From assembly GCA_036273855.1 (NCBI GenBank), contig DASUGU010000036.1, positions 11,041 to 75,040 of the forward strand: DNA of 64,000 nt. The letters run 5' to 3'. Positions 1 to 14,623 of the stretch are shown one piece after another. The position numbers and the translations under genes were made by a program. This stretch comes from Pseudonocardiaceae bacterium (GTDB lineage: Bacteria > Actinomycetota > Actinomycetes > Mycobacteriales > Pseudonocardiaceae). Every line of letters begins with the position of its first letter. The stretch's first letter is position 1. The notes below the pieces were generated by a model. It searched no databases, was not told the DNA's origin, and saw only the letters and a program-made list of their open reading frames with translations.

Positions 1-53
1 GGCGACCTTGAACCACCGACAGGCGAGCCGTTGACTCCACGTCCAGATGCCGG

Positions 54-281
54 TCACTGGTCGTCACCTGACCCTTGCCGCTCCTGGTCGTGATAGGCGC
101 GAGCCAGGTCGAACTCGTCCGCGTAGGCGTTGGCGACCTCCACGACGGCGGCAGCCTCACGGGCGATCTCGCGGTACAGCCATCCAGCCTGACCACCGCT
201 GTTCTCGATCGATTCGAGCTCCTCACCCAGGTAGCCCAGGTGGTAGAGGCGGTCACACAGGTTTTCCCAAGTTTCCAACAT
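54..281 (-). CDS. small hypothetical protein (75 aa from internal ATG; ORF open to 383)
   Basis: ORF 54..383 (-). The ATG at 281 gives MLETWENLCDRLYHLGYLGEELESIE... No family recognised. Confidence 0.3.
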   Translation of the reverse strand: MLETWENLCDRLYHLGYLGEELESIENSGGQAGWLYREIAREAAAVVEVANAYADEFDLARAYHDQERQGSGDDQ

Positions 282-370
282 GGTTGATTCCGATCTACTC
301 GATTGACGGCTCCGCGGTTGCGGTTCCGCGCTATCGAGTAGACGGCGAAACAAGGCCCAATAGCAGAAAG

Positions 371-395
371 CCTCCGCATACAAAATATGCGGAGG
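371..395 (-). terminator. hairpin downstream of the creatininase-family gene
   Basis: Perfect 10-bp inverted repeat cctccgcata/tatgcggagg with a 5-nt loop, 57 nt past the stop at 452. It is followed on the minus strand by CTTTCT. Confidence 0.45.
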
Positions 396-451
396 TCAGA
401 TTCGCTTCACGCTATTACTGCATATCGGCTATGCGCGGTCAGAATGGCGCA

Positions 452-1165
452 TCAATCACTCTGGAGAAGGAGGCTCAGCAACGCCTCGAACGACTCGGTC
501 AAGCTGGCCAGCGCAAGCCGGCCCTTCTCTGCTGTCGCCAGCGAAGGACGCCCAATGATGCCAGCGTCGGCGTAGCCGGCCGTCCCGAGAAGATGCAGGT
601 ACGGACGCTGCGGTACGTCGTGGTCGGCGTCCAGGTAGCCGTCCCGCACCAGGTCAGGGCAGCCGTCGAGGAGGATTGAGGTCTCCCACTCGCCGCCGTG
701 CATGTCCTCGCTCGTGGTGGTCACCATGCCGGCAGCCTGCCGGGCGGTGGCCATGTCCTCACGACCGGGGAACAGCCCGACCGCGCGCCTTTTAACGTTC
801 GCCTGTTGGGCGATATTGGAGAGAACGTAATTGCCGCCGTGCCCGTTCACGATGACAAGCTGCTCAATTCCCTGTCGCTTCAACGACGCACGAATATCCG
901 ACACCACCGCAATGAGCGTCTGAGCGTCGATGCTGACCGTGCCGGTGAATCCCTCGTGTTCGTGAGAACAAGAGAACGTCAGCGGCGCGAGTCGAAACAA
1001 TCCGTAGTGTTCGGCAACTCTCTCGGCGATCAGGGATGCGACAATCGTGTCGGTCGCCAGCGGCAGGTGCCGGCCGTGTTGCTCGAAGCTCCCCACCGGT
1101 AGAACGGCCACGCGCGCATCGCGGACAGTGTCATCGCTGGACACTGCGCCAGTAATGACCTCCAT
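452..1165 (-). CDS. creatininase-family amidohydrolase (creatinine amidohydrolase / MftE / ArfB fold)
   Basis: 237-aa ORF with family signatures VGSFEQHGRHLPL, IVNGHGGN and HGGEWETS. Confidence 0.8.
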   Translation of the reverse strand: MEVITGAVSSDDTVRDARVAVLPVGSFEQHGRHLPLATDTIVASLIAERVAEHYGLFRLAPLTFSCSHEHEGFTGTVSIDAQTLIAVVSDIRASLKRQGIEQLVIVNGHGGNYVLSNIAQQANVKRRAVGLFPGREDMATARQAAGMVTTTSEDMHGGEWETSILLDGCPDLVRDGYLDADHDVPQRPYLHLLGTAGYADAGIIGRPSLATAEKGRLALASLTESFEALLSLLLQSD

Positions 1166-2530
1166 CTAGCTCTCTTTCGAGGATCGGAGCAGAGTCAGCA
1201 GCGACCGGATGTGCCTGGCCTGGTCGTTCTCTCCTGACTCGTCCAGGAGTTTGGGGATGCGGACAAGTTGCGACTCGATCCTAAACGAGCGAGTTTCGAT
1301 ACCGATCGCGAAGGCACGTTCGGCCACGAACACCGCATGGTCGGCCTGTTCCTTCGCCGCGTGCGCGACCGACAGCCGAGCCAGGCATAGCCCCAGGTCA
1401 CGACGGTACTCAGGCCGCCACTCCGCGAGTCCCTGCTGCAATGTCACGACGGCGTCATCCGCCCTGCCCAGAGCTACCCAGCACTGAGCGGCCTCCATCT
1501 CCAGGTACTCGCGGGTGCAGTAGTGCGCCAGGTCGGTCTCCGTGTCGGGACCGTGCTCGGCCGGGCTGAACGCGGTTTCCAGTACGCGAGTGCATGACTC
1601 GGCGTCACCGGCCTGCATGTAGGCGTTCGCTTGCTGTCGAAGTACCACAGCACGCATCCGGGGCGACAAGATCGCCGCTCGGCGCAAGGCTGTGTTGACC
1701 AGTTTCAGCGCGAGGTCGGGCCGGCCGGCATCGGAGGCGATGTTGCTCTTGCGCATGAGGACGTAGGCCGCCAGGGAGTCATCCTCGGTCTCCTCGGCGA
1801 AGTCGAGGCCAGCGTTGGATAGTTGCATAGCGGTGTCCAGCGACCCTGTGTCCTGATACAGCCACCCAACAAACTCGGCGTAACGCGCGCCCACGTACAG
1901 CAGACGGGACCGATCCTTGCCGCGTGCGCTCGTCAGCAGGTTCTCGACGAACCTGAGCTGCTGCGGAGCGACATGCACGAGCGAGTGCGGACCTACCAGG
2001 TTGTCCGTGATGACGTAATGCTCCAGGGTCCTCAGCAGAGTGTCCGCGATGGTCGAGCCGATGCTCACACTCGCCGCAGGCACCAGTGGCCCATCGGGAA
2101 GCGCGAGGATCGCATCGACGCGCGGCAGTGGATCGCTGGAACTATTGGGCAGCGGGAACCACAGCAGGTCCGCCGGCATCTTCAACGCCTGCGCGTAGTG
2201 GACCAGCTTGCCCAGTGTGTCGACGCGGTTCCGGCCAGATTCTATGCGGCTCAATTGAGGTTGGGTGATGCCGAGCCAGCGGCTTACGGCGTCCTGTGGC
2301 AACGGCTTATGGCCGTGGCCCGGGTGATATCGATACGTCCGGACAACGGTGCCCATGTCGTGATTCGCGAAGGCATCCCGCATCTGGTCGGTAAACCAGA
2401 AGTCACGACCGAAATCCGGCGCCCGATCCGTGCCGATGCCGCTCACCTGCCGGCACGGGCCGCACATGCTCGCCTGACTGTCTCGCGCCAGCCTTCCGCC
2501 GCACCGCATGCAGTACCGGCCGGCCGTCAT
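1166..2530 (-). CDS. Zn-ribbon + XRE-type HTH + TPR-like helical-repeat transcriptional regulator
   Basis: ORF 1166..2647. The ATG at 2530 is preceded by AGGTGGAG. It has an N-terminal CMRCGG...CGPC ribbon, the HTH ITQPQLSRIESGRNRVDTLGKLVHYAQAL, and a long alpha-helical repeat C-terminus. Its TAG stop directly abuts the ATG of 452..1165. Confidence 0.7.
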   Translation of the reverse strand: MTAGRYCMRCGGRLARDSQASMCGPCRQVSGIGTDRAPDFGRDFWFTDQMRDAFANHDMGTVVRTYRYHPGHGHKPLPQDAVSRWLGITQPQLSRIESGRNRVDTLGKLVHYAQALKMPADLLWFPLPNSSSDPLPRVDAILALPDGPLVPAASVSIGSTIADTLLRTLEHYVITDNLVGPHSLVHVAPQQLRFVENLLTSARGKDRSRLLYVGARYAEFVGWLYQDTGSLDTAMQLSNAGLDFAEETEDDSLAAYVLMRKSNIASDAGRPDLALKLVNTALRRAAILSPRMRAVVLRQQANAYMQAGDAESCTRVLETAFSPAEHGPDTETDLAHYCTREYLEMEAAQCWVALGRADDAVVTLQQGLAEWRPEYRRDLGLCLARLSVAHAAKEQADHAVFVAERAFAIGIETRSFRIESQLVRIPKLLDESGENDQARHIRSLLTLLRSSKES

Positions 2531-2743
2531 CGCTCCACCTGTCTGCCTCGCCCCCGAACGCTCACGTCGATACGCAGCGTCAATCAGACTGTAGCCACGT
2601 GAGGGACTATATGCCCGGCGCGCATAGAACTCATGCGTCTGAGGCACTTACGCCCCTCAAGCCGACTCCATAGCGTCACAGCAGGTGGGCCGCATACCCG
2701 CACTGATGCCACGAGACGCCGGAGGACGCGAAGGTGCTTCACA

Positions 2744-3127
2744 ATGGATGACTTGTCGTACGGGCACAGGCGCACTGTGCGCGACTATCGCCTGGCACTT
2801 GGGCTGGCTATCACCCACATGAGGGAATCTGCCGACTGCTCCGTGAAGCAGATCTCTGCTCGCACGCGGATTCCAGAGCAAACGTTGCGCAGCTACGAGC
2901 ATGGAGACTCTCAACCGCCGCTGCCTCGACTGCTCCAGGTGGCGCGGGTGCTCAGCGCATCTGCATTCGATCTCCTGACCGACACGTCGAAATACATCTA
3001 CCGAACACGCGGTCGGCCGTTTCCGGAACCTGATAGCGCATGTCGGGCGAAACTGTCGGCCATATTGCTGTACTGCGGAGCATCACTAGATGACATTGAT
3101 GAGATGCTGAACCACGAGAACTTTTGA
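2744..3127 (+). CDS. XRE-family HTH protein
   Basis: The ATG at 2744 is in frame with ORF 2633..3127. HTH-like segment: CSVKQISARTRIPEQTLRSYEHGDSQPPLPRLLQVARVL. It is divergent from the 1166..2530 regulator. Confidence 0.6.
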   Translation: MDDLSYGHRRTVRDYRLALGLAITHMRESADCSVKQISARTRIPEQTLRSYEHGDSQPPLPRLLQVARVLSASAFDLLTDTSKYIYRTRGRPFPEPDSACRAKLSAILLYCGASLDDIDEMLNHENF

Positions 3128-3189
3128 CATGAAATGACGTCCATTCGACGCCTACCAATACCTTTCTCCACCTGCGAGATTGGACACGA

Positions 3190-3372
3190 ATGAACGTGCT
3201 ATGCCCATTGAACAGCCAGGTATGGCCCACGCCGTGGGCATTCGCTGCAATACGGCTCGTTGTCTGGCTGGCCTCGCTCAGCCCAGAACAAGTGCAAGCG
3301 GCAAACGACGCCCTGTCTCCTGATGACATCCCGCAGCAGGGCGACCACACCCCGCAAGGGAGGACGTCGTGA
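3190..3372 (+). CDS. small hypothetical ORF (60 aa), first of four overlapping ORFs
   Basis: ORF in track. Its TGA (3370-3372) overlaps the GTG (3369-3371) of the next ORF. No clear RBS. Confidence 0.25.
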   Translation: MNVLCPLNSQVWPTPWAFAAIRLVVWLASLSPEQVQAANDALSPDDIPQQGDHTPQGRTS

Positions 3373-3545
3373 TCGACCCGGTCTCCTTGGTCTTCCTTCT
3401 GATCATCGCCGTGTGCGTGCCTGCCGTGGCCTATCTGGCTCCACAGGACCCGACAGTGGTCCGACTTGTCAGCGCAGTGAGCCAGCGGCGCCGACACCGC
3501 CGGACGCGACGGTGGGTCGCCCATCAGCGAGGTGACCGACGATGA
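3369..3545 (+). CDS. small predicted membrane protein (58 aa)
   Basis: Hand-translated: VIDPVSLVFLLIIAVCVPAVAYLAPQ... followed by an Arg-rich tail. One hydrophobic helix. It has a GTGA overlap upstream and an ATGA overlap (3542-3545) downstream. It is below the size cut-off of the ORF track. Confidence 0.3.
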   Translation: MIDPVSLVFLLIIAVCVPAVAYLAPQDPTVVRLVSAVSQRRRHRRTRRWVAHQRGDRR

Positions 3546-3778
3546 GCTTCGACACCGGTGGCTACCGGACGCGGTGGACGGTGCCCTGTGCGGATTTGAT
3601 CGGCCACGAACGACGGGTCGTGATCAGTCCAGCCAGCGACGGGTCAGCCCTGTTGATTGCACTGCCGTCCGACACCGTCCGAGTCACCGAGGAACAGGCG
3701 CTGGAGATGGCCGCAGACCTGGTGAAAGCCGTGCACGAGATCCTTCCGGACAACGAAGAAGCGGAGAGAACGCCGTGA
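3542..3778 (+). CDS. hypothetical protein (78 aa)
   Basis: ORF in track (MSFDTGGYRTRWTVPCADLIGHERRVVISPASDG...). It is overlap-coupled on both sides. Confidence 0.4.
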   Translation: MSFDTGGYRTRWTVPCADLIGHERRVVISPASDGSALLIALPSDTVRVTEEQALEMAADLVKAVHEILPDNEEAERTP

Positions 3779-4062
3779 GCCGACCATTGGATGACGGCGC
3801 AATCGCCGCGATACTCGCCTCGATCGGTGCCCAGGTCCGTGACGCGCGCAAGGCGCGTGGGTGGTTCCTCGCCGACATTGCGGCGTTGCTTGGCCTGTCC
3901 CCCTCGGTGCTCTGCCGTCTGGAGCTGGCACGACGTGAGCCGAGCCTGCACCAGGTGATCAGCGCCTGCGCTGTGCTAGGGAAGCGATTCAGCGACGTGG
4001 TCCGACAGGCCGAAGACGACGCGTTCCCGCTCGGCTCCGGCCCATGGGACACGCCAATCTGA
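3775..4062 (+). CDS. XRE-family HTH protein (95 aa)
   Basis: The GTG at 3775 overlaps the TGA of the preceding ORF. HTH-like segment: WFLADIAALLGLSPSVLCRLELARREPSLHQVISACAVLG. Confidence 0.6.
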   Translation: MSRPLDDGAIAAILASIGAQVRDARKARGWFLADIAALLGLSPSVLCRLELARREPSLHQVISACAVLGKRFSDVVRQAEDDAFPLGSGPWDTPI

Positions 4063-4252
4063 GGTTGATTCAGCGTTCTCCACCGGAACCGGTGCCGGAC
4101 CGTTCCATGATTCCGCGATGGCCTGTTGCGCGGCAGCTGCACTACCGACGTCGCCTCATTTCACCCGTTCGGCCGGCGACTATCCCTACGAGCGCATTCG
4201 ATGATGGTCTGTACTAGTGCCTCTGGCTCATCAAAGAAAAGGAAGGTACAAG

Positions 4253-5182
4253 ATGACATCGCCCTTGTCTTTCGTGTGGCTAGAGGTAACGGGAAAATGC
4301 CAGCTCACGTGTGCGCATTGTTACGCCGACTCCGGGCCGCGTGGAACGCATGGGAATATGAAAGGTCGGGACTGGCTTCGGGTGATCAATGAGGCTGCCA
4401 CATTGGGCGTTCAAATGGTGCAGTTCATCGGCGGGGAACCGACGATGCATCCGGAACTTCCCGATCTGATCAACGGTGCACTCGCGAGTGGCCTTGAAGT
4501 CGAGGTCTACACCAACCTCGTTCATGTGCGCCAGGAGCTTTGGGAGACCTTCGAACAACCAGGCGTGCGCCTCGCCACGAGCTACTATTCAGATGAACGC
4601 TCTCAGCACGAGACGATTACGAAGCGGCGCGGCAGTTACTCGCGCACCAAGGCCAACGTCATCGAAGCGTTGCGGCGGTCAATTCCCATTCGAGTCGGAA
4701 TAGTGGAGACCCATGACGATCAGCGGGTCGAGCAGGCCCGTGCGGAACTAGAATCCCTCGGCCTGACCGATATCGGCAGTGACAGACTGCGGCAGGTCGG
4801 ACGCGGCATCCGTGACCAAGCCGCCGGCCTCGCCCAGTTATGCGGCAACTGCGCTTCCGGTGTCCTAGCTGTGTCTCCACATGGCTTTGTGTGGCCCTGC
4901 GTATTCTCTCGTTGGTTGTCCATAGGCAACGTACGGGATTCTTCGCTGACTGAGATACTGGCGGGTAGTCGACTTAGCAACGTACGCAGAGACCTGTTGG
5001 AACACTTCCAACAACGGCCAACACACTCCACCTTCTCGGCGTGTAACCCGGATTGCAACCCTCATTGCAACCCATGTAACCCAGGGTGCTCGCCCTATAA
5101 CGCGCCATGCAATCCTGCATGTTCGCCAAGTTGTAGTCCCACCTGCAACCCGACCAATTGCCGACCGCGCTGTTTACCCTAA
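4253..5182 (+). CDS. radical SAM / SPASM-type enzyme with Cys-rich C-(N/S)-P-x repeat tail
   Basis: The ATG at 4253 follows AAAGGAAGG. It has CQLTCAHC (CX3CX2C), the GGEP motif, and the SPASM first half C-x10-G-x4-C (CASGVLAVSPHGFVWPC). The last 46 residues carry 11 Cys. Confidence 0.85.
   Translation: MTSPLSFVWLEVTGKCQLTCAHCYADSGPRGTHGNMKGRDWLRVINEAATLGVQMVQFIGGEPTMHPELPDLINGALASGLEVEVYTNLVHVRQELWETFEQPGVRLATSYYSDERSQHETITKRRGSYSRTKANVIEALRRSIPIRVGIVETHDDQRVEQARAELESLGLTDIGSDRLRQVGRGIRDQAAGLAQLCGNCASGVLAVSPHGFVWPCVFSRWLSIGNVRDSSLTEILAGSRLSNVRRDLLEHFQQRPTHSTFSACNPDCNPHCNPCNPGCSPYNAPCNPACSPSCSPTCNPTNCRPRCLP
5042..5179 (+). repeat. 12-nt periodic coding repeat (TGY-AAY/TCN-CCN-NNN) encoding the Cys tail
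   Basis: tgtaacccggat tgcaaccctcat tgcaaccca tgtaacccaggg tgctcgccc... encodes CNPD CNPH CNP CNPG CSPYNAP CNPA CSPS CSPT CNPTN CRPR CLP. Confidence 0.8.
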
Positions 5183-5835
5183 GTAACGACGAAACCGATC
5201 TCGGCTGCCAGTTGGCCGGACAATGCCATCGCTTGCTCTCCAGTGATCACGGCACCAGTCATAGTCAACAAGCCAGACGCGCCCCTGAGAAACGAGCGCG
5301 TCAGGTCACAATTCATTGCGTTCCGTGCCTGAAATTCCGCGCCCTTGAAGTCGCATTCGGAGAACACCATCTTGGATAGATCACCGCCGAGCACAGCCTC
5401 CTTGAAGGTACAGCGATAGAAGACAATTATCCCACGGTGCTGCTCGATGTCAACATTTGAGTAATCGAGCCGGCAGCCTTCGAAGTAGAAATCCTCTGCC
5501 CTCGTCACGCCAAGTTGCAGGCCGACCGCTTGACAATCGATCACTTCCACTCGACGCGCCGTGACCCGTTCCCAAGACGAGTTGGGCAACGAAACCTGCC
5601 GAAACGCAACATCCATCAATTCGAGATCGGTGAATCGCGACTCCGCCAAGGATCCTTGTGACAAAACCACATGCCGCAGCGAGCCCTGACCCCTAACCCC
5701 GACCTGATCGACATCTTCAACCTGGCATTCGTCATAGTCAAAATGACCAGACAACGAGATGTCAGAAGGCGACAGCTCCTCGATATCGAGGATAGGACAC
5801 CTTATTGACTCGTCACCGACCGTGCGGAACTCCAT
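5179..5835 (-). CDS. pentapeptide-repeat protein
   Basis: 218-aa ORF with runs fitting A(D/N)(L/F)xx, for example CTFKEAVLGGDLSKMVFSECDFKGAEFQARNAMNCDLTRSFLRGASGL. Its stop overlaps the stop of the convergent radical SAM gene. Confidence 0.75.
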   Translation of the reverse strand: MEFRTVGDESIRCPILDIEELSPSDISLSGHFDYDECQVEDVDQVGVRGQGSLRHVVLSQGSLAESRFTDLELMDVAFRQVSLPNSSWERVTARRVEVIDCQAVGLQLGVTRAEDFYFEGCRLDYSNVDIEQHRGIIVFYRCTFKEAVLGGDLSKMVFSECDFKGAEFQARNAMNCDLTRSFLRGASGLLTMTGAVITGEQAMALSGQLAAEIGFVVT

Positions 5836-6205
5836 GTCCGCATTCTACAACTCGTGACGGACTCAGGTGAGCCAAGTACAAGACCTCGGCGGTCAGTTGG
5901 CACGGCGGTGCAGCAGGCAGCACTCAACAGGACGTGCTTCACCGGCGCCGCGCCTTGAGTGCGCTCAGCCGCCTCGCACCGGCGGAATCTCCGCCTAACG
6001 GTAGGCGTCAATGGCGATAAGGCTTATGGGGCACCACAAACGGAGAATAGTGCTCCAAGCTATGACAATACGGCCCACCTCCGCAGACACAGCGTTATAC
6101 GCCGGTGTCGATGCCAGCACCACACGAAGCCATGGTCCGCTGACCCATGATCCGCATCACCAGCAGACGTCTCACCAAACTCGGTATAGGAACGGACGCT
6201 GACTG

Positions 6206-7171
6206 CTACTCGGCCAGAATACATCGAGCAAATTTATCCAAGCCACTGTCAGGACGGAAAAATACGTGTTCAGCGGCAGCTTTAACCTGGATTCGATTCA
6301 GCCGATCAACTGCCGATTGGGGTACCTTGCCGACCAAATTTTTAGGCCCGATCGCAGCGCAGATAGTCGGGCTCAACGGCATGAAAACTGAATTTGCTTT
6401 ACCGAGAGGAACACCCTCTAGTGGCCCAACCGCGGCACTGTCCGATCGGATGGTTAACGCGGGTGCATCACCAATCAGGAACTCGCCACTCGTAGACCGC
6501 AAGATCTCTAGTCCCATCCTACGCAAGAAATCACGAGCCGCCTTGAAGATATCTTCGATGCGAACTCGCAGCAACCCATCGTTGCGAAAGTCCTCAGTGA
6601 TTTCCGCCATCAACAGGCCAGCTGCACGAGTGAGTCCACTTGCACCTTCTAGTAACAACCCGGTTCGTTGAAAGTAGAAATCGGTTAGCAACCCTGGTGT
6701 TTTGAATAGGCTCTTTCGAGTGTCGAGAGTCGTCTTATCCCGGGCTATATCGCTAACCCGTCGTACCAAATGGCTTCTGCAATAATGCAGTGCGATTGCA
6801 TCCTTAATTAGAAGGACGGCGGCAGGGTCATTAAACGGGTCCTCCGAATGCATCTCTATGATTGCGGCGCCCAGGTGGTCCTCTACAGCCTTCCAAACCA
6901 TCTCAAGCGATCGCGAAGCATACTTGACGAAATGGGGCACCTTCGCGCATTCTCTCGGACTGCGCCTTTTTGGTGTCGCATTCGGATACTTGAGGCTTAG
7001 ATCTTGAAGCCTGTAACCGCTTGGCCCATCATTCACGGTAAATTGCTTAAGCAGAACTTGTGAGACTATGTGTTGGTCCTGAACGAGGTCGCCAGCAAAT
7101 GGGCGCAGCCGTTCGACCCGATTAAGCAGATCCTCCGGGTCGGGTGGAACGTCTTCATGCTGACTGGCCAT
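6206..7171 (-). CDS. DUF4238-like protein
   Basis: 321-aa ORF. The N-terminal HIVSQVLLKQF resembles the H-[YF]-V-P-x-F-Y-L-x-x-F signature I associate with DUF4238. A later LIGDAPAL resembles its SDNP-type motif. Lowest G+C in the window. Confidence 0.5.
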   Translation of the reverse strand: MASQHEDVPPDPEDLLNRVERLRPFAGDLVQDQHIVSQVLLKQFTVNDGPSGYRLQDLSLKYPNATPKRRSPRECAKVPHFVKYASRSLEMVWKAVEDHLGAAIIEMHSEDPFNDPAAVLLIKDAIALHYCRSHLVRRVSDIARDKTTLDTRKSLFKTPGLLTDFYFQRTGLLLEGASGLTRAAGLLMAEITEDFRNDGLLRVRIEDIFKAARDFLRRMGLEILRSTSGEFLIGDAPALTIRSDSAAVGPLEGVPLGKANSVFMPLSPTICAAIGPKNLVGKVPQSAVDRLNRIQVKAAAEHVFFRPDSGLDKFARCILAE

Positions 7172-7183
7172 ACTGCCATCTTG

Positions 7184-7211
7184 CCACTTGGCTGTTGATC
7201 ACGCCAAGTGG
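7184..7211 (-). other. 9-bp stem hairpin between the KwaB-like and DUF4238-like genes
   Basis: ccacttggc / gccaagtgg with a 10-nt loop, 13 nt upstream of the DUF4238-like ATG. Confidence 0.4.
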
Positions 7212-7350
7212 TTTACCACTGCCATAACAAAAGATGAAGGTTGGCGAAGCATTCCGGCGGACGCTGGAGCCTCGCCAACGAGACGCCAGCGGAACAGATG
7301 AAGCCCCGCCCAGACACGACCTCACGTGAGCCGGCGGCGAACGGTGCGGC

Positions 7351-8250
7351 CTACCTTCTACGCGCTTTGCGGGCAGCAGCATATTGCTCGCCTGAGAAGT
7401 CACCGGTCCAGAGGTCTTCGTTGAGCAACAAGAGAATGTCTTTCTCTGTGTCTCTGGTGATGACAAGCTCATCGTCGCTCATGAGAAGACTAGGATCGAG
7501 CCCTCTTTCGCGCATCTTCACCTTCAGTACATCCGGCGTCAATGTAGGAAGGTAGTCACTCTTCAGAATACTGAGCACCTTACGGCGCATCACGCTAGTT
7601 TCGCGAAGTCGCTTCGCCAACCATTCCTTTCCCTCACCGGAGATCGGCAAGGCCCTTGCGAGGTCGCCCACCCACTCGGCTGTCTTCGCGAGAACCGCTT
7701 CACTTTCCTTAAAGATGGCTTCAAAATTGTTTTGGTTTAGAATTGACACGGAACCGGGAAAGATTACGACGTCGTAAGTGTCATCGAAGGCAAGCAACGG
7801 CTGTTCAACCCGAGTCAATGTCTGGTCAAACAGAGCCACAAGGCCCTTCCTGGCAAGCTGGACTGGATTCCGTCGTCTCACGAAGGCAGCCAGATTTTCT
7901 GGATCACGCCCTATGACAAGCGCATACAGCGCCAAGGACCGAGTCCGCAAATCATCCAATGAAACCAACGGCAGTGAGGCGCCTCGCTGAATCACCTCAA
8001 GAAGTGCGGTGTCCAGGAGTTCGTCAAGGCCAGCGTCCAGATGAACAGTTTCGTCATCTTGCTCATCGTTGGGATCGTAGGCTCTTCCTTCATTAGAGGC
8101 GATCTTCGCTAAAGCATCGTTGGCGTACTGTCGCAAGCTCGCAAGTACAGACCCTCCAGCTTTCACAACCCGTCCGTGGGCGTTCTTGCCCGTGCGCCAA
8201 GCCACCACGAGCGATGCCGGAGCACTCAAGTCAAGTTCAGCAACTGCCAT
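7351..8250 (-). CDS. kwaB: KwaB-like protein (DUF4868) of a Kiwa-type defence pair
   Basis: 299-aa ORF placed 18 nt after a 4-TM protein gene. The segment PLLAFDDTYDVVIFPGSVSILNQNNFEAIF matches my recollection of the DUF4868 core. The size and gene order fit kwaA-kwaB. Confidence 0.5.
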   Translation of the reverse strand: MAVAELDLSAPASLVVAWRTGKNAHGRVVKAGGSVLASLRQYANDALAKIASNEGRAYDPNDEQDDETVHLDAGLDELLDTALLEVIQRGASLPLVSLDDLRTRSLALYALVIGRDPENLAAFVRRRNPVQLARKGLVALFDQTLTRVEQPLLAFDDTYDVVIFPGSVSILNQNNFEAIFKESEAVLAKTAEWVGDLARALPISGEGKEWLAKRLRETSVMRRKVLSILKSDYLPTLTPDVLKVKMRERGLDPSLLMSDDELVITRDTEKDILLLLNEDLWTGDFSGEQYAAARKARRR

Positions 8251-8268
8251 GCCCGTCCTGTCGACTGC

Positions 8269-8796
8269 CTACACCCCAGTTGATAGCGCACGTTGGCCTC
8301 GTGGCGTCCGGTCGATCAGTACGTCGTCTCGGAACCGCGTAGCTTCGATAAGTTGGCCCGAGTCTAGGCGCCGCCGCGTAACCAGATAGGCACGTAGCCC
8401 GTGCGTGTCCGTCACTTGTAGCACACGGTAGCCGCAAACGTATAGCAGCGGGTTGATCTGCACTACGGAAGAGTGAAGGTGGATTGACGCGGCCACGGCC
8501 AAGAACGCTCCGTAAGCAACCACGTCGCGGACACTGGGTGTAGAAACCGTCAAAAACGGCAACAGATAGCCGCCCAGGTACGCTCCGGCCTCGGACCCCG
8601 CATCTCGAATCATCTTCAGTTCGTGTGCACCCGGTGCCGATCGCGAGTCCAGTTTAAAGAGCAAGAACAGTGCAGCCACGCCCAGAGCGGCCATGCTGCC
8701 ACAGACGATCACTAGCCAGCCCTGCGTGAACCGGATAGCCAACAGTGCAAAAAGGGGAGAATAGGATGAAAGGAACATCAGCGGCTTGCCAAGCAT
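8269..8796 (-). CDS. kwaA: KwaA-like four-helix membrane protein
   Basis: ORF 8269..8823. The ATG at 8796 is preceded by CCGGAGGGGCC. There are four hydrophobic helices and then a soluble tail of about 60 aa. It lies immediately upstream of the DUF4868-like gene. Confidence 0.45.
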   Translation of the reverse strand: MLGKPLMFLSSYSPLFALLAIRFTQGWLVIVCGSMAALGVAALFLLFKLDSRSAPGAHELKMIRDAGSEAGAYLGGYLLPFLTVSTPSVRDVVAYGAFLAVAASIHLHSSVVQINPLLYVCGYRVLQVTDTHGLRAYLVTRRRLDSGQLIEATRFRDDVLIDRTPRGQRALSTGV

Positions 8797-8822
8797 GGCC
8801 CCTCCGGCGTCTGCGCTGCACA

Positions 8823-8838
8823 TCGAACGTATGTTCGA
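8823..8838 (-). promoter_or_regulatory. perfect actinobacterial LexA (SOS) box upstream of the kwaA-like gene
   Basis: TCGAACGTATGTTCGA equals the consensus TCGAAC-N4-GTTCGA and lies 27 nt upstream of the ATG at 8796. A CATAAT -10-like hexamer (minus strand, 8843..8838) overlaps its edge. Confidence 0.7.
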
Positions 8839-8975
8839 TTATGCTGGTCTGGTCCGACAGAGATCGGGGGAACAGTGCAGAGGCGTTTGGACCCTGCATG
8901 AGCATCCGAGCACCAGGGAGTGTGCCATCCCGTTCACCGAAGGAAGGACAACGACCGACCCCATGGCGACACCTG

Positions 8976-9113
8976 TCAAGGGCGGTAACAATAGGGTTTC
9001 AAATACAAGTCGGTCTCGGTGAAGTCGCAGCGTTCGAACGTGACGCCTCGCCACTCGTGACCGGGCAGTTCGGCGTCGGTGAACAGTTCGTCGACGATGG
9101 TCTCGTCGGTCAC
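8976..9113 (-). pseudogene. 5' fragment of a host pentapeptide-repeat gene truncated by the island
   Basis: The GTG at 9113 overlaps the USP stop (GTGA). It reads VTDETIVDELFTDAELPGHEWRGVTFERCDFTETDL in GC-rich codons. It then runs into AT-rich sequence (YLKPYCYRP) and stops. Confidence 0.6.
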
Positions 9114-9559
9114 GGCACGACCACGACCGGGCGGGTGGCGTGGGCCAGCAGGGATTTCGGGACCGTGCCGAGTAGTCCACCGCGGTGGCGGGATCGGCCG
9201 ACCACGATGCAGTCGGCCCGCCGCTGTTCGGCGATCGCCTCCAGCACCAGTGCCGGTTCACCCTGCCCGTAGAGCATCTCCCAGGCGACACCGCGCTCGT
9301 CGAGCAGCGGCCCGGCCTGCTCACGCAACTCCTGGACGTACTCGGCGGCCGCGTCGGTCGCGGCGGCGCCGCTCATCGCGGTCCAGTAGGCCGGGCTGGA
9401 CAGCACCTCGACGTAGACCACCAGCAGCACACCGCGTTCCCGGCGGGCCAGGCCGGCCGCCCAGGCCGCCGCGTGGGTGGACGGTGGGCTGCCGTCATAG
9501 CCGAGCACGACGGCGCCGACGCCGTCCTTGCCGATCTCGAAAGGAGTCTCCGCGGCCAC
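9110..9559 (-). CDS. universal stress protein (UspA family)
   Basis: 149-aa ORF with VVLGYDGSPPS...ADCIVVGRSRHRGGLLGTVPKSLLAHATRPVVVVP, typical of the USP ATP-binding fold. Confidence 0.85.
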   Translation of the reverse strand: MAAETPFEIGKDGVGAVVLGYDGSPPSTHAAAWAAGLARRERGVLLVVYVEVLSSPAYWTAMSGAAATDAAAEYVQELREQAGPLLDERGVAWEMLYGQGEPALVLEAIAEQRRADCIVVGRSRHRGGLLGTVPKSLLAHATRPVVVVP

Positions 9560-9620
9560 GGGAGCGATCGTAGATGGCGGGCGGAAAATCCGGCGACGGC
9601 CCGATGATCACGATGCCACG

Positions 9621-10334
9621 ATGGCCACCATGACCAGCACCGAACCGAGCGCCTACGACGAGATGGCCGCCGACTACGCCGAGTCCAACACCACCAACGC
9701 GTACAACGGACTGTACGAACGACCGGCATCGCTCGCCCTGCTCGGCGACGTCGCCGGGCAGCGGGTGCTGGACGCCGGGTGCGGGCCGGGCCGGCACGCG
9801 GCGGAGCTGGTCGCCAGGGGCGCCACCGTCACCGGGCTGGACGCCAGCGCCGGGTTGCTGGCCGAGGCCCGCAAGGTGCTCGGCCAGGACGCCGACCTGC
9901 GCGTCGCCGACCTGGTCGAGCCGCTTCCGTTGCCGGACAACACTTTCGACGCGGTGCTGGGATCGCTGGTGATGCACTACATCGAGGACTGGGTACCGAC
10001 TCTGCGGGAGTTCCACCGGGTGCTGGTGCCCGGCGGGCGGTTCGTCATGTCCACCCATCACCCGGCGATGGACCACGCACTGTCCGGTCGGGACAACTAC
10101 TTCGAGACCTACCTGTGGTCCGAGGTGTGGCAGCGGGGTGGGCGGGACGTGACGATGTCGTTCTGGCACCGGCCGCTGCACGCCATCACGGACGCACTGA
10201 CCGCCGGGGGCTTCCAGCTCGACGTGTTGAGCGAGCCGCAGCCGGTGCCGGCCGCGAAGGAACTGTTCCCCAGGGACTGGGCGGTGCTCACCACCGCACC
10301 CCGGTTCCTGTTCCTCGCGGCCCACGCGAGCTGA
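9621..10334 (+). CDS. class I SAM-dependent methyltransferase
   Basis: The ATG at 9621 is in frame with ORF 9528..10334. It has motif I VLDAGCGPGRH and the post-I motif VTGLDAS. Confidence 0.85.
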   Translation: MATMTSTEPSAYDEMAADYAESNTTNAYNGLYERPASLALLGDVAGQRVLDAGCGPGRHAAELVARGATVTGLDASAGLLAEARKVLGQDADLRVADLVEPLPLPDNTFDAVLGSLVMHYIEDWVPTLREFHRVLVPGGRFVMSTHHPAMDHALSGRDNYFETYLWSEVWQRGGRDVTMSFWHRPLHAITDALTAGGFQLDVLSEPQPVPAAKELFPRDWAVLTTAPRFLFLAAHAS

Positions 10335-10337
10335 CCC

Positions 10338-10517
10338 CTACCGGGGCACGATGACCATGCGCAGGCCGACCTCGACGAGCAGCCAGCCGATGCGCTGTCG
10401 GGAGGGCGATCGGGGATGTCGTCGGGTCAGGCGGGGCAGCGATCGCGCTGCCATCGCCGCCGTTCGGACTTCGGCGTAGCGCTCGCGGGCCAGGGCTTCG
10501 GTGCAGGCGGGATTCAT
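10338..10517 (-). CDS. small hypothetical protein (59 aa)
   Basis: The ATG at 10517 lies within ORF 10338..10790 and is divergent from the ArsR-type gene. No family recognised. Confidence 0.25.
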   Translation of the reverse strand: MNPACTEALARERYAEVRTAAMAARSLPRLTRRHPRSPSRQRIGWLLVEVGLRMVIVPR

Positions 10518-10536
10518 CACGTTGTGCAAACTACTC

Positions 10537-10570
10537 CTTGCAAGCCGATGCTTGCAAGCATATATTTGCA
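10537..10570. promoter_or_regulatory. tandem palindromic operator-like repeats in a divergent promoter
   Basis: CTTGCAAG at 10537-10544 and again at 10551-10558 (the second sits in the 10-bp palindrome GCTTGCAAGC). A TTTGCAT follows at 10565-10571 in an AT-rich stretch just upstream of the ATG at 10574. Confidence 0.4.
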
Positions 10571-10573
10571 TAC

Positions 10574-11224
10574 ATGACGGGAGAGATGCCGCAACGCCAC
10601 CACCCCTGGCTCGAGTCGGCGGACGACACGGTGCTCGCGGACACCGCGATCCTGCAGGCAGTCGCCCACCCGCTGCGGATCCGGCTGCTCGGCCTGTTGC
10701 GGCTGCACGGCCCGTCGACCGCCACGAAACTGGCGGCCCAGGTCGGCGAATCCTCCGGCCTGACCAGCTACCACCTGCGCAACCTGGCATCCGCCGGGCT
10801 CGTCACCGACGCCGAACCGGACGATCTCGCCGGCATCCGGCAGACCGGCGGCCGCGAGCGATGGTGGAAGGCGGTCCACCGGTTCACCTCTGTGCCGGCC
10901 ACCCCGGCGCCCGGCGACGAGACGTCCGAGGCGGTCCGGGAGGACTACGTGCGGACCATGCTGGCGAACTACTCGGGCGCGTCGCAGCGCTGGCTGGCGA
11001 CCGCCCACGCCTGGCCCAAACAATGGCGGGACACGGCCGGGTTCAGCGACGTGATCCTCCAGCTCACCCCGGACGAAGCGATCCGCCTGCAGCAGGAGAT
11101 CTACGAGCTCACCGCCAAGTACCGCAGGCACCAGCCCGGTGGGACCGTCGAACCGGACCAGGCGATCATCGCGGCGCAGTTCCTGGTGTTCCCCCACCCG
11201 GACCAGGAGCCGCCGCCCGGCTGA
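10574..11224 (+). CDS. ArsR-type winged-helix transcriptional regulator
   Basis: ATG at 10574. It has ILQAVAHPLRIRLLGLLRLHGPSTATKLAAQVGESSGLTSYHLRNLASAGLV (ArsR HTH_20-like) plus a C-terminal extension. Confidence 0.75.
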   Translation: MTGEMPQRHHPWLESADDTVLADTAILQAVAHPLRIRLLGLLRLHGPSTATKLAAQVGESSGLTSYHLRNLASAGLVTDAEPDDLAGIRQTGGRERWWKAVHRFTSVPATPAPGDETSEAVREDYVRTMLANYSGASQRWLATAHAWPKQWRDTAGFSDVILQLTPDEAIRLQQEIYELTAKYRRHQPGGTVEPDQAIIAAQFLVFPHPDQEPPPG

Positions 11225-11230
11225 ACCGGA

Positions 11231-14200
11231 TCAGCGGAAGTCCCGCGACTTGGTCATGGCCACCTTCATGTCCAGCGGCCGCAACTGGTCGGCGACCAGG
11301 CTCAGCGCCCCGTCCACGTTCTCCAGCACGCCACGCACCAGCAGCGCCTTGCTGTTCCTGGCGGTCCTGCGGTACCGGGTCCACAGGCCGGGCGAGCAGA
11401 CCACGTTGACCATGCCGGTCTCGTCCTCCAGGTTCACGAACGTCACGCCGCCCGCGGTGGCCGGGCGCTGCCGGTGGGTGACGGCACCACCGACCAGCAC
11501 CCGGGTACCGGACGGCACGCCGAGCAGTTCGGCCGCGCGCAGCGCACCGATCTCGGTGAGGTGTTCGCGGACGAACTCGGTGGGGAAACTGGTCGGCGAC
11601 AGGCCCAGCGCCCACACGTCGGCGGCCGCCGTCTCCACCACGTCCATGCCGGGCAGCACCGGGGCGTCGACGCCGACGGCCGTGCCGGGCAACCGGTCCG
11701 GCCGGTCCTGGGCCGCGGCACCCGCCGCCCACAGCGCGGCCCGGCGGCCCACGCCCAGACAGTCGAACGCACCCGCCGTGGCCAGCGACTCCCATTGTGG
11801 CGTGGTCATCCGCACCCTGCGGGCCAGGTCGATCAGGCCGGTGTACGGGCCGTGTGCCGCACGTTCCGCGACGATCGTGTCGGCGAGCTGCTCACCGATC
11901 CGGCGCACCCCGGCCAGGCCGAGCCGGACCGCCTGCCCGCCGGTGCTGTCGGCGGCCGGTTCCAGCATGGGATGGGTGCGGCTGGTGTTCAGGTCGGGGT
12001 TGCGCACCACGACACCGTGCCGGCGGGCATCGGCCACCAGCGACTGCGGCGAGTAGAACCCCATCGGCTGGGCGCGCAGCAACGCGGCGCAGAACGCGGC
12101 CGGGTGGTAGAGCTTGAACCAGGCACTGGCGAACACCAGGTGGGCGAAGCTGAACGCGTGGCTCTCCGGGAAGCCGAAATTGGCGAACGCCAACAGCTTC
12201 TGGTAGATCCGCTCGGCCAGGTCGCCGGTGATCCCGTTGCGGGCCATGCCGTTGAACAACCGGTCCCGCAACCGTTCCATCCGGGCCGTGGACCGTTTGG
12301 CGCCCATCGCCCTGCGCAGCTCGTCGGCGTCCCCGGCGCTGAACCCGGCCACGTCCACCGCGATCTGCATCAACTGCTCCTGGAACAGCGGCACGCCCTT
12401 GGTCTTCTCCAGCGCGTTGCGCATCAGCGGATGGTCGTAGTCCCACTTCTCTTCCTCGTTGTGCCGCCGGATGTACGGGTGCACCGAGCCGCCCTGGATC
12501 GGGCCGGGCCGGATCAGCGCCACCTCGACCACCAGATCGTAGAACTTGCGTGGCTTCAGCCGGGGCAGGGTGGCCATCTGCGCCCTGCTCTCCACCTGGA
12601 ACACGCCCACCGAGTCGGCCCGGCACAACATGTCGTAGACCTCGCTGTTCTTGAGGTCCAGCGCGGCGATGTCGACCGGGATGCCCTCGTGTTCGGCGAC
12701 CAGCTCGGTGGCGTAGCGCAGGGCGGACAGCATGCCCAGGCCGAGCAGGTCGAACTTGACCAGACCGGCGGCGGCGCAGTCGTCCTTGTCCCACTGCAGC
12801 ACGCTGCGGTCGGCCATCCGCGCCCACTCCACCGGGCACACCTCGCTGACCGGCTGGTCGCAGATCACCATGCCGCCGGAGTGGATGCCCAGGTGCCGGG
12901 GGAAGTCCTCGACGTCGGTGGCCAGCCGCACCACGTCCGCCGGGACGTCGTCGAAGTCCTGCTGCGCCTGCCGGACCGGACCCCAGCGGTCCACCTGCCG
13001 GGACCAGGCGTCCTGCTGCCCGGTGGAGTAGCCCAGCGCCTTCGCCATGTCCCGCAGCGCGGACCGGCCCCGGTAGGTGACGACGTTGGCCACCTGGGCG
13101 GTGCAGAGCCGGCCGTACGTCCGGTAGACGTGCTGGATGGCCTCCTCCCGCCGGTCGGACTCGATGTCCAGGTCGATGTCCGGGTAACCGGCGCGTTCCG
13201 GCGACAGGAACCGCTCGAACAGCAGCTTGTGCTCGACCGCGTCCACCTTGGTGATGCCCAGCGCGTAGCAGACGGCCGAGTTCGCGGCCGAACCCCTGCC
13301 CTGGCAGAAGATGCCGTTGCTCTCGCAGAACCGGACGATGTCCCAGACGATCAGGAAGTAGCCGGGGAAGCCCAGGTCCTTGATCACCTTGAGCTCGTGT
13401 TCCAGCTGCCGGTACGCCTCCGGACTGTCCACCGTCGTGCCGTAGCGGGCGCGGGCCCGCTCGTAGACCAGGTAGGTCAGGAACGTGTCCTCGTCGTGGC
13501 CGTCCGGCACCGGGAACGGCGGCAGCTTCGGCGCGACCAGCGTCAGGTCGAACGCGCACTCCAGGCCCAGCTGGGCGGCCCGGTGCACGGCACCGGGATA
13601 GCGGCGGAACCGGTCGGCCATCTCGGCGCCGGACCGCAGGTAGGCCATCGGTGCCGGCGGCAGCCAACCGTCCATTTCGGACAGACTGCGGCGGGCCCTG
13701 ACCGCGGCCAGTGCGGCGGCCAGCCGACCCCGGGCCGGGTGCGAGTAGTGCACGGCGTTGCTGGCCACCGTGGGCAGGCGCAGGTCGGCGGCGATGCCGG
13801 CGAGCAGGTCGTTGCGCTCGGTGTCCCCCGGCACGCCGTGGTCGACGAGCTCCACGTAGACGTGGTCGCGGCCGAACCGGTCGGCGAGGAAGCGCAGCTC
13901 GTCGGCAGCGGCGGCCGGACCGGACTCGGCCAGCGCCCTGCGGACCGGGCCCTTGCGGCAACCGGTCAGCACGGCGCAGTAGTCGCGCATCTCCTCCACG
14001 ACCTCGTCGTCGACCACCACCTCCTCGACGTCGACCATCTCGTCCACGATCTCGTCCACGTAGTAGAGCGGTCTGCCCTTCTCGGTGTCCTTGGTGTCCG
14101 GCAGGTCCGGGGTGCGGCCGAGATGGCCGGTGGTGATGGTGCGGCACAGTCGCCGGTAGCCCTCCTGGCCCCTGGCCAGCAGCACGAGATGGTCACCGAC

Positions 14201-14623
14201 CGGGTCGGCGACGCCGTTCTGCGGTTCGGGCAGGCCGAAGCTCAGCTCGGCGCCGTACGCGGTGTGCACACCCAGTTCCTTGGCCGCCTCGGCGAACCGC
14301 ACCACCCCGTACATGCCGTCGTGGTCGGTCAGCGCGATCGCGTCCAGGCCCAGCCGGGCGGCCTGCTCCACCAGTTCCTCGGGGTGGCTGGCGCCGTCCA
14401 GGAAACTGAAGTTGGAGTGGCAGTGCAGTTCGGCGTAGGGGACGCGCTCGGCGCCCGGGCGGTCCGTCGCCGTCGGCCGGATCTCCGGCGGCGACTCGTA
14501 CTCGGTGCGCCTGCGCGTCCAGGCGGGGCTGTCCCCGCCGTCACCCGAACCGGGCGGTGCGGGCCGACCGGACAGCGCGCGTTCCAGGTCGGCCCACCGC
14601 ACGGGCGGGTTGTTCCAGCCCAT
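11231..14623 (-). CDS. dnaE2: error-prone DNA polymerase III alpha subunit DnaE2
   Basis: The start MGWNNPPVRWADLERAL matches the DnaE2 N-terminus. It has the PHP motif YAELHCHSNFSFLDGAS and polIII alpha motifs throughout. The ORF is open to 14839. Confidence 0.9.
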   Translation of the reverse strand: MGWNNPPVRWADLERALSGRPAPPGSGDGGDSPAWTRRRTEYESPPEIRPTATDRPGAERVPYAELHCHSNFSFLDGASHPEELVEQAARLGLDAIALTDHDGMYGVVRFAEAAKELGVHTAYGAELSFGLPEPQNGVADPVGDHLVLLARGQEGYRRLCRTITTGHLGRTPDLPDTKDTEKGRPLYYVDEIVDEMVDVEEVVVDDEVVEEMRDYCAVLTGCRKGPVRRALAESGPAAAADELRFLADRFGRDHVYVELVDHGVPGDTERNDLLAGIAADLRLPTVASNAVHYSHPARGRLAAALAAVRARRSLSEMDGWLPPAPMAYLRSGAEMADRFRRYPGAVHRAAQLGLECAFDLTLVAPKLPPFPVPDGHDEDTFLTYLVYERARARYGTTVDSPEAYRQLEHELKVIKDLGFPGYFLIVWDIVRFCESNGIFCQGRGSAANSAVCYALGITKVDAVEHKLLFERFLSPERAGYPDIDLDIESDRREEAIQHVYRTYGRLCTAQVANVVTYRGRSALRDMAKALGYSTGQQDAWSRQVDRWGPVRQAQQDFDDVPADVVRLATDVEDFPRHLGIHSGGMVICDQPVSEVCPVEWARMADRSVLQWDKDDCAAAGLVKFDLLGLGMLSALRYATELVAEHEGIPVDIAALDLKNSEVYDMLCRADSVGVFQVESRAQMATLPRLKPRKFYDLVVEVALIRPGPIQGGSVHPYIRRHNEEEKWDYDHPLMRNALEKTKGVPLFQEQLMQIAVDVAGFSAGDADELRRAMGAKRSTARMERLRDRLFNGMARNGITGDLAERIYQKLLAFANFGFPESHAFSFAHLVFASAWFKLYHPAAFCAALLRAQPMGFYSPQSLVADARRHGVVVRNPDLNTSRTHPMLEPAADSTGGQAVRLGLAGVRRIGEQLADTIVAERAAHGPYTGLIDLARRVRMTTPQWESLATAGAFDCLGVGRRAALWAAGAAAQDRPDRLPGTAVGVDAPVLPGMDVVETAAADVWALGLSPTSFPTEFVREHLTEIGALRAAELLGVPSGTRVLVGGAVTHRQRPATAGGVTFVNLEDETGMVNVVCSPGLWTRYRRTARNSKALLVRGVLENVDGALSLVADQLRPLDMKVAMTKSRDFR

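Follow-up and report, generated by a model that had tools for sequence, protein, structure and literature searches.

A radical SAM protein family in which an expandable Cys-x-Pro tail takes the place of the second SPASM half, possibly as a tethered substrate

SPASM domains carry 7-8 conserved cysteines and two auxiliary clusters, and the smaller twitch domains 3-4 cysteines and one cluster (PMC10452713). SkfB ligates its auxiliary cluster by three Cys and leaves one site open, which is thought to bind a Cys of the substrate, and the free iron in Aux I of CteB is bound to a Cys of the substrate peptide (PMC8326336). Here we analyze a gene for a radical S-adenosylmethionine (SAM) protein, called the rSAM protein below, in 64,000 nucleotides of a Pseudonocardiaceae bacterium (contig DASUGU010000036.1, positions 11,041 to 75,040 of the forward strand); this whole stretch is referred to as the window. 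The rSAM protein has the first half of a SPASM domain and ends in a string of Cys-x-Pro units. Tentatively, and aware that competing explanations together carry much weight, we favor the reading that it is an SkfB-like enzyme with a three-Cys auxiliary cluster that would process its own Cys-x-Pro units. The gene and its elements are as follows, where A1 denotes a 40-sequence alignment.

4240 to 4246, forward strand: Shine-Dalgarno-like AGGAAGG, read from the sequence, 6 nt 5' of ATG 4253
4253 to 5182, forward strand: rSAM gene, 309 amino acids (aa), radical SAM domain and half-SPASM with Cys-x-Pro tail, stop codon at 5180-5182
4298 to 4321, forward strand: CX3CX2C radical SAM cluster motif, CQLTCAHC in the sequence, with C16, C20 and C23
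4430 to 4441, forward strand: GGEP motif for SAM binding, residues 60-63, all four residues invariant in A1
4841 to 4900, forward strand: first SPASM/twitch half, C197-x2-C200-x10-G211-x4-C216 (beginning C197-G-N-C200), from alignments
4946 to 5041, forward strand: helices of residues 232-254 (AlphaFold), then a variable linker, residues 255-263, ahead of the tail
5042 to 5179, forward strand: repeat tail of 11 Cys-x-Pro units spaced 3 to 7 residues apart, residues 264-309

According to the list of open reading frames (ORFs) and the sequence, the reading frame is open from GTG 4217 or ATG 4253 to 5182 on the forward strand. Because of the AGGAAGG at 4240-4246, ATG 4253 and not GTG 4217 is the likely start, and residues are numbered with the Met at 4253 as 1. 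C16 and C23 are invariant in A1 and C20 is at least 90% conserved. Throughout the family alignments C197, G198, C200, G211, W214, P215 and C216 are invariant, and C197, C200 and C216 are the presumed ligands of one auxiliary cluster. An earlier note on this DNA had named CQLTCAHC, GGEP and the first SPASM half, which is borne out by the sequence and by Pfam, where Radical_SAM (PF04055) scores 55 bits (cut-off 29.5) and SPASM (PF13186) 35 bits (cut-off 21.5) over residues 199-268. The rSAM protein has the traits of a radical SAM enzyme, namely CX3CX2C, GGEP and a modeled beta/alpha barrel with a predicted local distance difference test score (pLDDT) above 90, and those of a first SPASM half, the CX9-15GX4C hairpin with an upstream Cys. 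The second half, CX2CX5CX3C with a final Cys, is not matched; as had been noticed earlier, the tail stands in its place, and the window protein reads C-x3-C-x3-C-x2-C-x3-C and so on. A RiPP recognition element (RRE; RiPP, a peptide made by the ribosome and modified after translation) was not found in the rSAM protein, since its N-terminus has only 15 residues ahead of CX3CX2C. NCBIfam holds no specific family for the protein: the top model is TIGR04053 with 70.9 bits against a cut-off of 395, and the SkfB, PqqE, MftC, PapB and viperin models all stay far under their cut-offs. Matches in PHROGs are to generic radical SAM families only.

The tail can be written as CNPD CNPH CNP CNPG CSPYNAP CNPA CSPS CSPT CNPTN CRPR CLP, and its 46 residues and 11 Cys at nt 5042-5179 agree with the earlier description. 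All 11 of the 11 Cys are followed by x-Pro. The CxP background in the six-frame translation of the whole window is 0.19 per 46 residues and the next-densest stretch holds 6; the CxP density of the tail is far above chance. A 12-nt DNA repeat had been proposed as well, of which the periodicity stands, with a lag-12 identity of the tail DNA of 0.48 versus 0.29 +/- 0.045 (0 of 2000 codon shuffles reached 0.48), and the array does not: Tandem Repeats Finder reports none at 4900-5300. Therefore, the periodicity of the tail resides mainly at the protein level and the DNA repeat is weak. The five NxxC units ascribed to the tail are present, while the single CxxxD is in fact a CxxD (C264-N-P-D267). 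A comparison with CXXX-repeat models, which had been suggested as a check, gave 10.6 bits (E = 0.45, cut-off 50) for the target model TIGR04117 on the window tail; among three tails tested against NCBIfam, two touched only TIGR04117 and TIGR04118 and the third matched nothing. Pfam C_tripleX scores 13.9 bits on the window tail. Homology to C_tripleX was rejected: a single relative lies above the threshold, which reflects pattern likeness to the nematode C-x3-C repeat. Rfam returned nothing in 1-12000, and in 3400-6300 no promoter or terminator signal exceeded shuffles.

A word-indexed search yielded 1532 homologues of the rSAM protein at E < 1e-5. The best 120 of the 1532 have about 290-350 aa and cores that are about 55-68% identical, and they belong mostly to Pseudonocardiales, Streptomyces and other Actinomycetota. 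A full Cys-x-Pro run, of varying length, closes each of these 120 except P0089 (272 aa), in which the sequence stops early within the tail. A hidden Markov model scan of 1.84 billion cluster representatives, with family clusters defined at 50% identity, gave 1014 clusters at E < 1e-30. Judged from these sequences, the tail is the normal architecture of the family, and the idea of an unusual, one-off fusion of maturase and precursor had to be given up. Our literature search, which covered the tail, fused radical SAM precursors and radical SAM genes in connection with ATPases, kinases and defense, found no paper on this family, and no curated model for the family was found.

Tail statistics are based on 245 sampled family members with 2065 tail Cys. 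Pro follows at +2 after 97% of these Cys. Position +1 is G in 15%, N in 13% and S in 12%, and position +4 is C in 38% and R in 5% (85 CxPxR among 2001 CxP). With Asn at +1 in only 13% family-wide and no CxxxD in the window tail, the analogy drawn earlier to PapB (CxxxD) and NxxcB (NxxC) does not hold. The spacing from Cys to Cys ranges from 3 to 20, is mostly 4-9 and most commonly 4, and proteins carry 0 to 55 tail Cys (median 8). In the extreme tails of 34, 42 and 55 units every unit is CxP. Some tails consist of 18-residue repeats with one CxP each (ECGPDRAIAKKKADLKNI x6), others of 9-residue repeats with a single CxP, e.g. RCHPEGVMQ, and some subfamilies carry just 2-3 CxP units. A terminal CxPxY is common among the relatives. 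In subgroup A2 with a 7-Cys tail, five CxP units are invariant and two nearly so, and the tail has a terminal Tyr. Given the free spacing and copy number together with 97% Pro at +2, the selected unit is Cys-x-Pro and not a fixed Cys pattern, and since both the x positions and the underlying DNA diverge, purifying selection acts on C and P in every unit. Since relatives carry 0 to 55 tail Cys, these go beyond two SPASM clusters, which had been named as the possible account for all of them.

The same data bear on the explanation that the tail has no meaning and is low-complexity sequence which arose through replication slippage or is read in a wrong frame. The first four units, CNPD CNPH CNP CNPG, are alike in their DNA, and tail length varies even between close relatives, as slippage would produce. 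However, more than 1000 clusters have the tail in frame, C and P persist at 97% amid diverging x positions and DNA, and a metagenomic copy of 97% identity carries the very same tail. We regard this explanation as ruled out by the conservation data, its probability being negligible.

The AlphaFold2 model of the window protein, built on a 40-sequence alignment, has pLDDT > 90 in the core, including the beta-hairpin 204-214 and the helices 232-237 and 239-254, and pLDDT < 50 for residues 258-291 and 304-309, with 292-303 marginally higher. A second AlphaFold run on A2, the best-conserved 7-Cys-tail subgroup, gave a tail pLDDT of 26-37 and no compact Cys cluster. In the structure prediction, which had been proposed for counting cluster-ligating Cys, the tail, with its pLDDT below 50, has no predicted fold. 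The closest solved relative by sequence is SkfB (PDB 6EFN, E = 3e-15), which is also the closest by fold (E = 9.6e-13, template modeling score TM 0.67); SuiB, PqqE, EpeE, DesII, BlsE, MoaA, viperin and anSME come next. The first SPASM half aligns with the twitch/SPASM hairpin of SkfB, BtrN and anSME. The domain may be of the twitch type: three invariant Cys lie ahead of the helix, and SkfB gives the best match in the PDB.

These alignments also bear on the main rival explanation, which we consider somewhat unlikely, namely that the tail is a cofactor module, a diverged and expanded SPASM second half that binds Fe-S clusters, metal or persulfide sulfur. The role of such a module would lie in electron transfer, in the supply of clusters or in their repair, and the true substrate would be a separate molecule. 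The tail stands at the place of CX2CX5CX3C...C, and the Pfam SPASM alignment runs through residue 268 and takes in the first two tail Cys. Both anSME and BtrN align to profile positions 191-276 (anSME with E = 2.6e-5 and over the hairpin region only), and two of the three cluster ligands of SkfB come from the segment after the helix (alignment and PMC8326336). Further, the last approximately seven CxP units are aligned and invariant within a close clade, and the terminal CxPxY is widespread. A cofactor module is, however, difficult to reconcile with copy numbers of 0-55 and with up to 18 residues between single Cys, and subfamilies of 2-3 CxP units cannot complete two clusters. It also leaves the strict Pro at +2 unexplained; we know of no Fe-S motif that this Pro would match. 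The tail-less copy on a prophage, described below, retains all core motifs. Finally, AlphaFold gives the tail no compact fold, whereas it models canonical SPASM domains well (PMC10452713).

For the favored reading, in which the rSAM protein processes its own tail, we infer a mechanism of four steps. First, C197, C200 and C216 would bind a single auxiliary Fe-S cluster in which one iron stays free, like SkfB and like Aux I of CteB. Second, the thiolate of a single tail unit at a time would bind to the free iron, by which the unit is placed near SAM. Third, the 5'-deoxyadenosyl radical would take a hydrogen from the Cys C-beta, a neighboring C-alpha or the Pro ring, and the product could be a small thioether ring or an oxidized cysteine. 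Fourth, the tail would be a tethered substrate with multiple sites, in an enzyme-substrate fusion for which leader peptide and RRE are dispensable. Because each unit would be independent, the copy number of the tail could drift. The cis-fused core suggested in the earlier note is hence retained in the form of a tethered substrate, and its ranthipeptide specifics, NxxC and CxxxD, are not.

The neighborhood was sampled in 75 genome loci with an intact homologue. An ABC-type ATPase and a kinase resembling aminoglycoside phosphotransferases (APH-like) both lie beside the rSAM gene at 62 of the 75 loci, one of them at 8 loci (several at contig ends) and neither at 5. The three genes follow each other as rSAM, ATPase and kinase on the same strand in 41 loci, and otherwise their order and orientation vary. 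The ATPase has about 247 aa and matches AAA_21 and AAA_15 as well as the PADLOC models mad3 (68-70 bits) and AriA (47-50 bits); the kinase has about 275 aa and a weak match to PF01636 and none in PADLOC. The trio is also present in Laceyella (Bacillota), beside phage-lysis-like ORFs, which we take by eye, without a model check, to be holin- and amidase-like, and on plasmid pSCL4 of Streptomyces clavuligerus, where the record has three matching places. Several genomes have two to four copies of the family. The other flanks are heterogeneous: 483 neighboring ORFs fell into 382 clusters, and the Pfam families of 139 neighbor representatives cover, among others, housekeeping functions, integrases and transposases. 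Neither a protease nor an exporter nor an RRE recurred among the 139 representatives. The surroundings sampled here are not a RiPP cluster. Beyond ATPase and kinase, the recurrent neighbors are HTH_31-DUF5753 regulators (27-31 loci) and integrases, and a regulator with helix-turn-helix (HTH) and tetratricopeptide repeat (TPR) domains lies less than 6 kb from the rSAM gene in 10-18 of the 75 loci. These regulators may be linked to the rSAM gene or may be mere markers of actinomycete accessory islands. We also observed a cluster of ORFs of about 77 aa that recurs near rSAM genes in 16 loci and a PCMT-like protein methyltransferase near the cassette in four loci, including 11637-12851 of locus L058.

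The earlier note had asked whether the tail exists elsewhere as a separate small gene. In a six-frame scan outside the rSAM ORF, covering 76 genome and 22 further loci, no separate CxP-rich gene was found; the single CxP run (locus L072, 2690-2734) is probably due to chance. Archaeal, phage-like and other distant members stand alone, without ATPase and kinase. Across the family, the sole constant is the enzyme with its tail.

The neighboring genes are relevant to another explanation, which we hold to be unlikely, and more so than the cofactor module: the tail could be a regulatory or docking element, either a pseudo-substrate that occludes the active site and is released by a partner (the ATPase, the kinase or a phage trigger) or a repeated target-binding motif, and the enzyme would have its substrate in trans, be it a small molecule, a nucleotide or some other protein. 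Short linear motifs that recur along a disordered tail are, we infer, typical of binding or auto-inhibitory regions. The frequent APH-like kinase and the ATPase, which is related to sensors of PARIS, Gabija, Septu and MADS, are consistent with this explanation, as are copies at prophage moron positions, on plasmids and in defense islands, the existence of tail-less copies and the resemblance of the core to the small-molecule enzymes DesII, BlsE, MoaA and viperin. On the other hand, the solo copies of phage-like, archaeal and other origin, which lack ATPase and kinase, are those whose tails are longest or most regular, a conserved candidate for a trans substrate is missing near the rSAM genes (neighbor clusters and Pfam), and viperin models score far below cut-off (41.7 bits versus 180).

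Copies of the rSAM gene are found in several mobile and viral settings. The Mycobacterium abscessus prophages prophi68-1 and prophiGD04-1 carry it as gp78, which is 54.5% identical and located between integrase and lysis cassette. For the genes 78 and 77 of prophi68-1 this is a typical moron or defense position. In the prophi68-1 locus (L085, 2071-3516, genes 78 and 77) gp78 is annotated as 'oxidoreductase', and a 128-aa protein beside it is annotated as 'RNA demethylase' and has a faint AlkB-like match (E = 0.1). Fourteen IMG/VR contigs have the rSAM gene, mostly close to prophage ends. The proteins with 55 units (L088, 6001-7938) and 42 units (L106 and L107, 6001-7758) are encoded on contigs of 150, 117 and 115 kb. 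Both types of long-tail contig have TROVE/Ro60-like genes next to the rSAM gene, and a major capsid protein gene is present on the 150-kb contig and RlaP on the 117-kb contig. Their many unannotated ORFs on the same strand suggest that these contigs are large phages. An archaeal-looking contig and another low-GC genome have rSAM copies without ATPase or kinase. Decayed or rearranged copies occur too: a deletion fuses the rSAM core to the ATPase end (L065, 3758-4546), an internal tail deletion joins PCVP to CVPTEY (L068, 8004-8801), and one copy is truncated (L073, 7992-8732). From these copies, recombination between tail units evidently takes place.

Taken together, the cassette is mobile and self-contained, as one gene, with ATPase and kinase, or with a convergent gene for a pentapeptide-repeat protein. 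The setting on mobile elements suggests a role in conflict between host and phage or between elements, and not an exported natural product. A fuller picture can be drawn, although we consider it speculative and rather doubtful: a family of self-modifying radical SAM enzymes would convert a multi-copy Cys-x-Pro substrate unit by unit to thioether-stapled or aldehyde residues, and the product, whole or as a fragment, would have an intracellular role in the conflict between phage and host. In the subclade of the window the pentapeptide-repeat protein would serve as immunity partner, ATPase and kinase would sense or control in most Actinomycetota, and large phages would carry the 42- and 55-unit versions.

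The tethered substrate is supported by the Cys-x-Pro unit as the only thing that selection preserves, by the lack of an RRE and of a separate precursor in about 100 loci together with the solo distant members, by a tail without predicted fold, by tail Cys counts at odds with SPASM, by SkfB with its open-site cluster as the closest solved relative, and by flanks in which, as far as sampled, nothing else is constant beyond ATPase and kinase. Several points weigh against it. The tail sits exactly at the position of the SPASM ligand Cys, and within subgroups such as A2 its spacing is well conserved, which a cofactor-binding segment would fit equally well. The turnovers of a self-modifying enzyme would be limited to its number of units, and no conserved release protease was found in the family loci. 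AlphaFold leaves the tail undocked from the active site, although its low pLDDT may merely reflect the missing metal. The prophage gp78 is tail-less with all core motifs kept, and no frameshifted tail lies downstream of it; in Herbihabitans (L068) the internal deletion leaves one tail Cys, with ATPase and kinase kept. Because such tail-less or nearly tail-less members exist, the enzyme must manage some activity without the tail, unless these copies are decaying. The tethered-substrate and the cofactor model are not fully exclusive, as a tail Cys could be the fourth ligand of the cluster at rest and the substrate in turnover.

No ATPase or kinase partner is found within the 64-kb window. The genes around the rSAM gene are the following.

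3532 to 4062, forward strand: upstream gene with an XRE-type HTH domain, Pfam HTH_31 with 34.7 bits
5179 to 5835, reverse strand: pentapeptide-repeat gene, 218 aa, Pentapeptide_4 with 58 bits, convergent with the rSAM gene, with overlapping stop codons
6206 to 7171: DUF4238 gene
7351 to 8250, reverse strand: KwaB of the Kiwa defense system, 2 kb from the rSAM gene
8269 to 8823, reverse strand: KwaA of the Kiwa defense system

The pentapeptide-repeat protein is the likely partner of the rSAM protein in the subclade of the window. The convergent pair recurs in the metagenomic locus L084, where it is about 97-98% identical and the tail is the same as in the window, in L081-L083 (62% identical) with surroundings of TetR, glyoxalase and pyridoxal decarboxylase genes, and in Actinophytocola xinjiangensis (L001, 56% identical) with different surroundings. 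The tails of the subclade relatives end in CRPNCLPP(R/K)R and that of the window in CRPRCLP. As the convergent pair is kept in differing surroundings and shares the tail end, the two genes form a co-inherited cassette. The best-known role of pentapeptide-repeat proteins is to mimic DNA and thereby shield gyrase (MfpA, Qnr), and they also provide self-immunity to producers of gyrase poisons (McbG, AlbG), which is a lead only in the present case.

The upstream HTH gene is probably shorter than its ORF, and a gene of 95 aa is called at the corresponding place in L084. It is a possible regulator of the rSAM gene. It is not conserved in the subclade, with L081 having TetR at this place. The rSAM-pentapeptide pair is part of a low-GC island at about 2500-9000 (51-66% GC, mostly 51-61%, versus about 70% beyond 9000), together with three HTH genes, the DUF4238 gene, which lies within the island, and Kiwa. 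L084 keeps the gene order rSAM, pentapeptide, DUF4238, KwaB, KwaA. No tRNA or integrase in the 64-kb window marks the borders of the island. Elsewhere in the window we observed a creatininase-family gene at the edge (452-1165, reverse strand; top NCBIfam model the mycofactocin peptidase MftE, 128 bits versus a cut-off of 172), a regulator with HTH and NsdA-family TPR domains (1166-2647, reverse strand; 164.5 bits, cut-off 75) and, in the high-GC part with its ordinary chromosomal context, the gene of the error-prone DNA polymerase DnaE2 (11231-14839, reverse strand; NF004225, 1479 bits).

If the tail is a tethered substrate, the rSAM protein would be a radical SAM peptide modifier that needs neither leader peptide nor RRE and the first radical SAM enzyme-substrate fusion, and it would offer a one-protein system for the engagement of an open auxiliary cluster by a substrate Cys. 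If the tail binds cofactors instead, it would constitute a novel Fe-S or metal-binding segment that can be expanded to a high degree. In either case a large family (1014 clusters at 50% identity, E < 1e-30) is concerned for which neither curated model nor literature was found, and it probably marks an unrecognized conflict module in antibiotic-producing actinomycetes and in prophages of Mycobacterium abscessus.

Among the known systems, SkfB, the sactisynthase of the sporulation killing factor of Bacillus subtilis, shares with the rSAM protein the radical SAM barrel and probably a truncated SPASM (twitch) domain. In contrast to the window protein it has an N-terminal RRE and a separate precursor, SkfA, and no Cys-x-Pro tail; in the alignment it has two Cys before the helix where the rSAM family has three, and its model TIGR04403 scores 50 bits on the window protein (cut-off 300). 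CteB, PapB and NxxcB act on substrates with Cys about every four residues (SCIFF, freyrasin and NxxcA, respectively), freyrasin having six Cys-Asp thioethers. They have a full two-cluster SPASM, an RRE and a separate precursor gene, and the rSAM family differs in each of these; the PapB model NF047865 gives 40.6 bits versus a cut-off of 340, and Asp or Asn acceptors are not conserved in the tails. The targets TIGR04117 and TIGR04118 are Cys-x3 repeat peptides predicted for radical SAM enzymes, to which the match of the window tail is not significant, and unlike the tail they are separate small genes beside RRE-type maturases. An RRE-type RiPP maturase was rejected as an identity of the rSAM protein, since neither RRE nor separate precursor turned up in the neighbor Pfam search and the scan for CxP ORFs.

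The anaerobic sulfatase-maturing enzyme anSME (AtsB) is a radical SAM-SPASM protein without RRE. Its target Cys lies in a C-x-P-x-R motif of the protein substrate, and the first three positions of this motif match the tail unit. Since Arg at +4 amounts to just 5%, the likeness to the sulfatase motif ends at Pro, and a reading of the tail as CxPxR was rejected. The substrate of anSME is a separate protein, and the rSAM family lacks the SPASM second half. anSME oxidizes Cys (or Ser) to formylglycine, and both of its auxiliary clusters are fully ligated by Cys (PMC8326336). Prokaryotic viperin (pVip) was rejected as well, with 41.7 bits for NF038283 against a cut-off of 180 and 53 bits for PADLOC pVip over the N-terminal half only.

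Borosins are comparable by analogy, as an OphMA-type N-methyltransferase has its substrate at its own C-terminus. The borosin enzyme modifies its own C-terminal core iteratively and autocatalytically (PMC7878506). Chemistry and fold are unrelated, however, and the borosin core is later excised, whereas no protease is linked to the rSAM family. The systems PARIS (AriA), Gabija (GajA), Septu (PtuA) and MADS (Mad3) are comparable in that the cassette here is mobile as well, with several copies in one genome, and the match of its ATPase to theirs covers generic motifs only. To our knowledge, no known defense system has a radical SAM or an APH-like partner. By its sequence the rSAM protein falls outside SkfB, PapB/NxxcB, anSME, CXXX-repeat systems and viperin, and by analogy it appears to be most like a twitch-type thioether synthase. 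Its domains are familiar; what appears to be new is that an expandable string of Cys-x-Pro units replaces the SPASM second half, and does so in a cassette carried by mobile elements.

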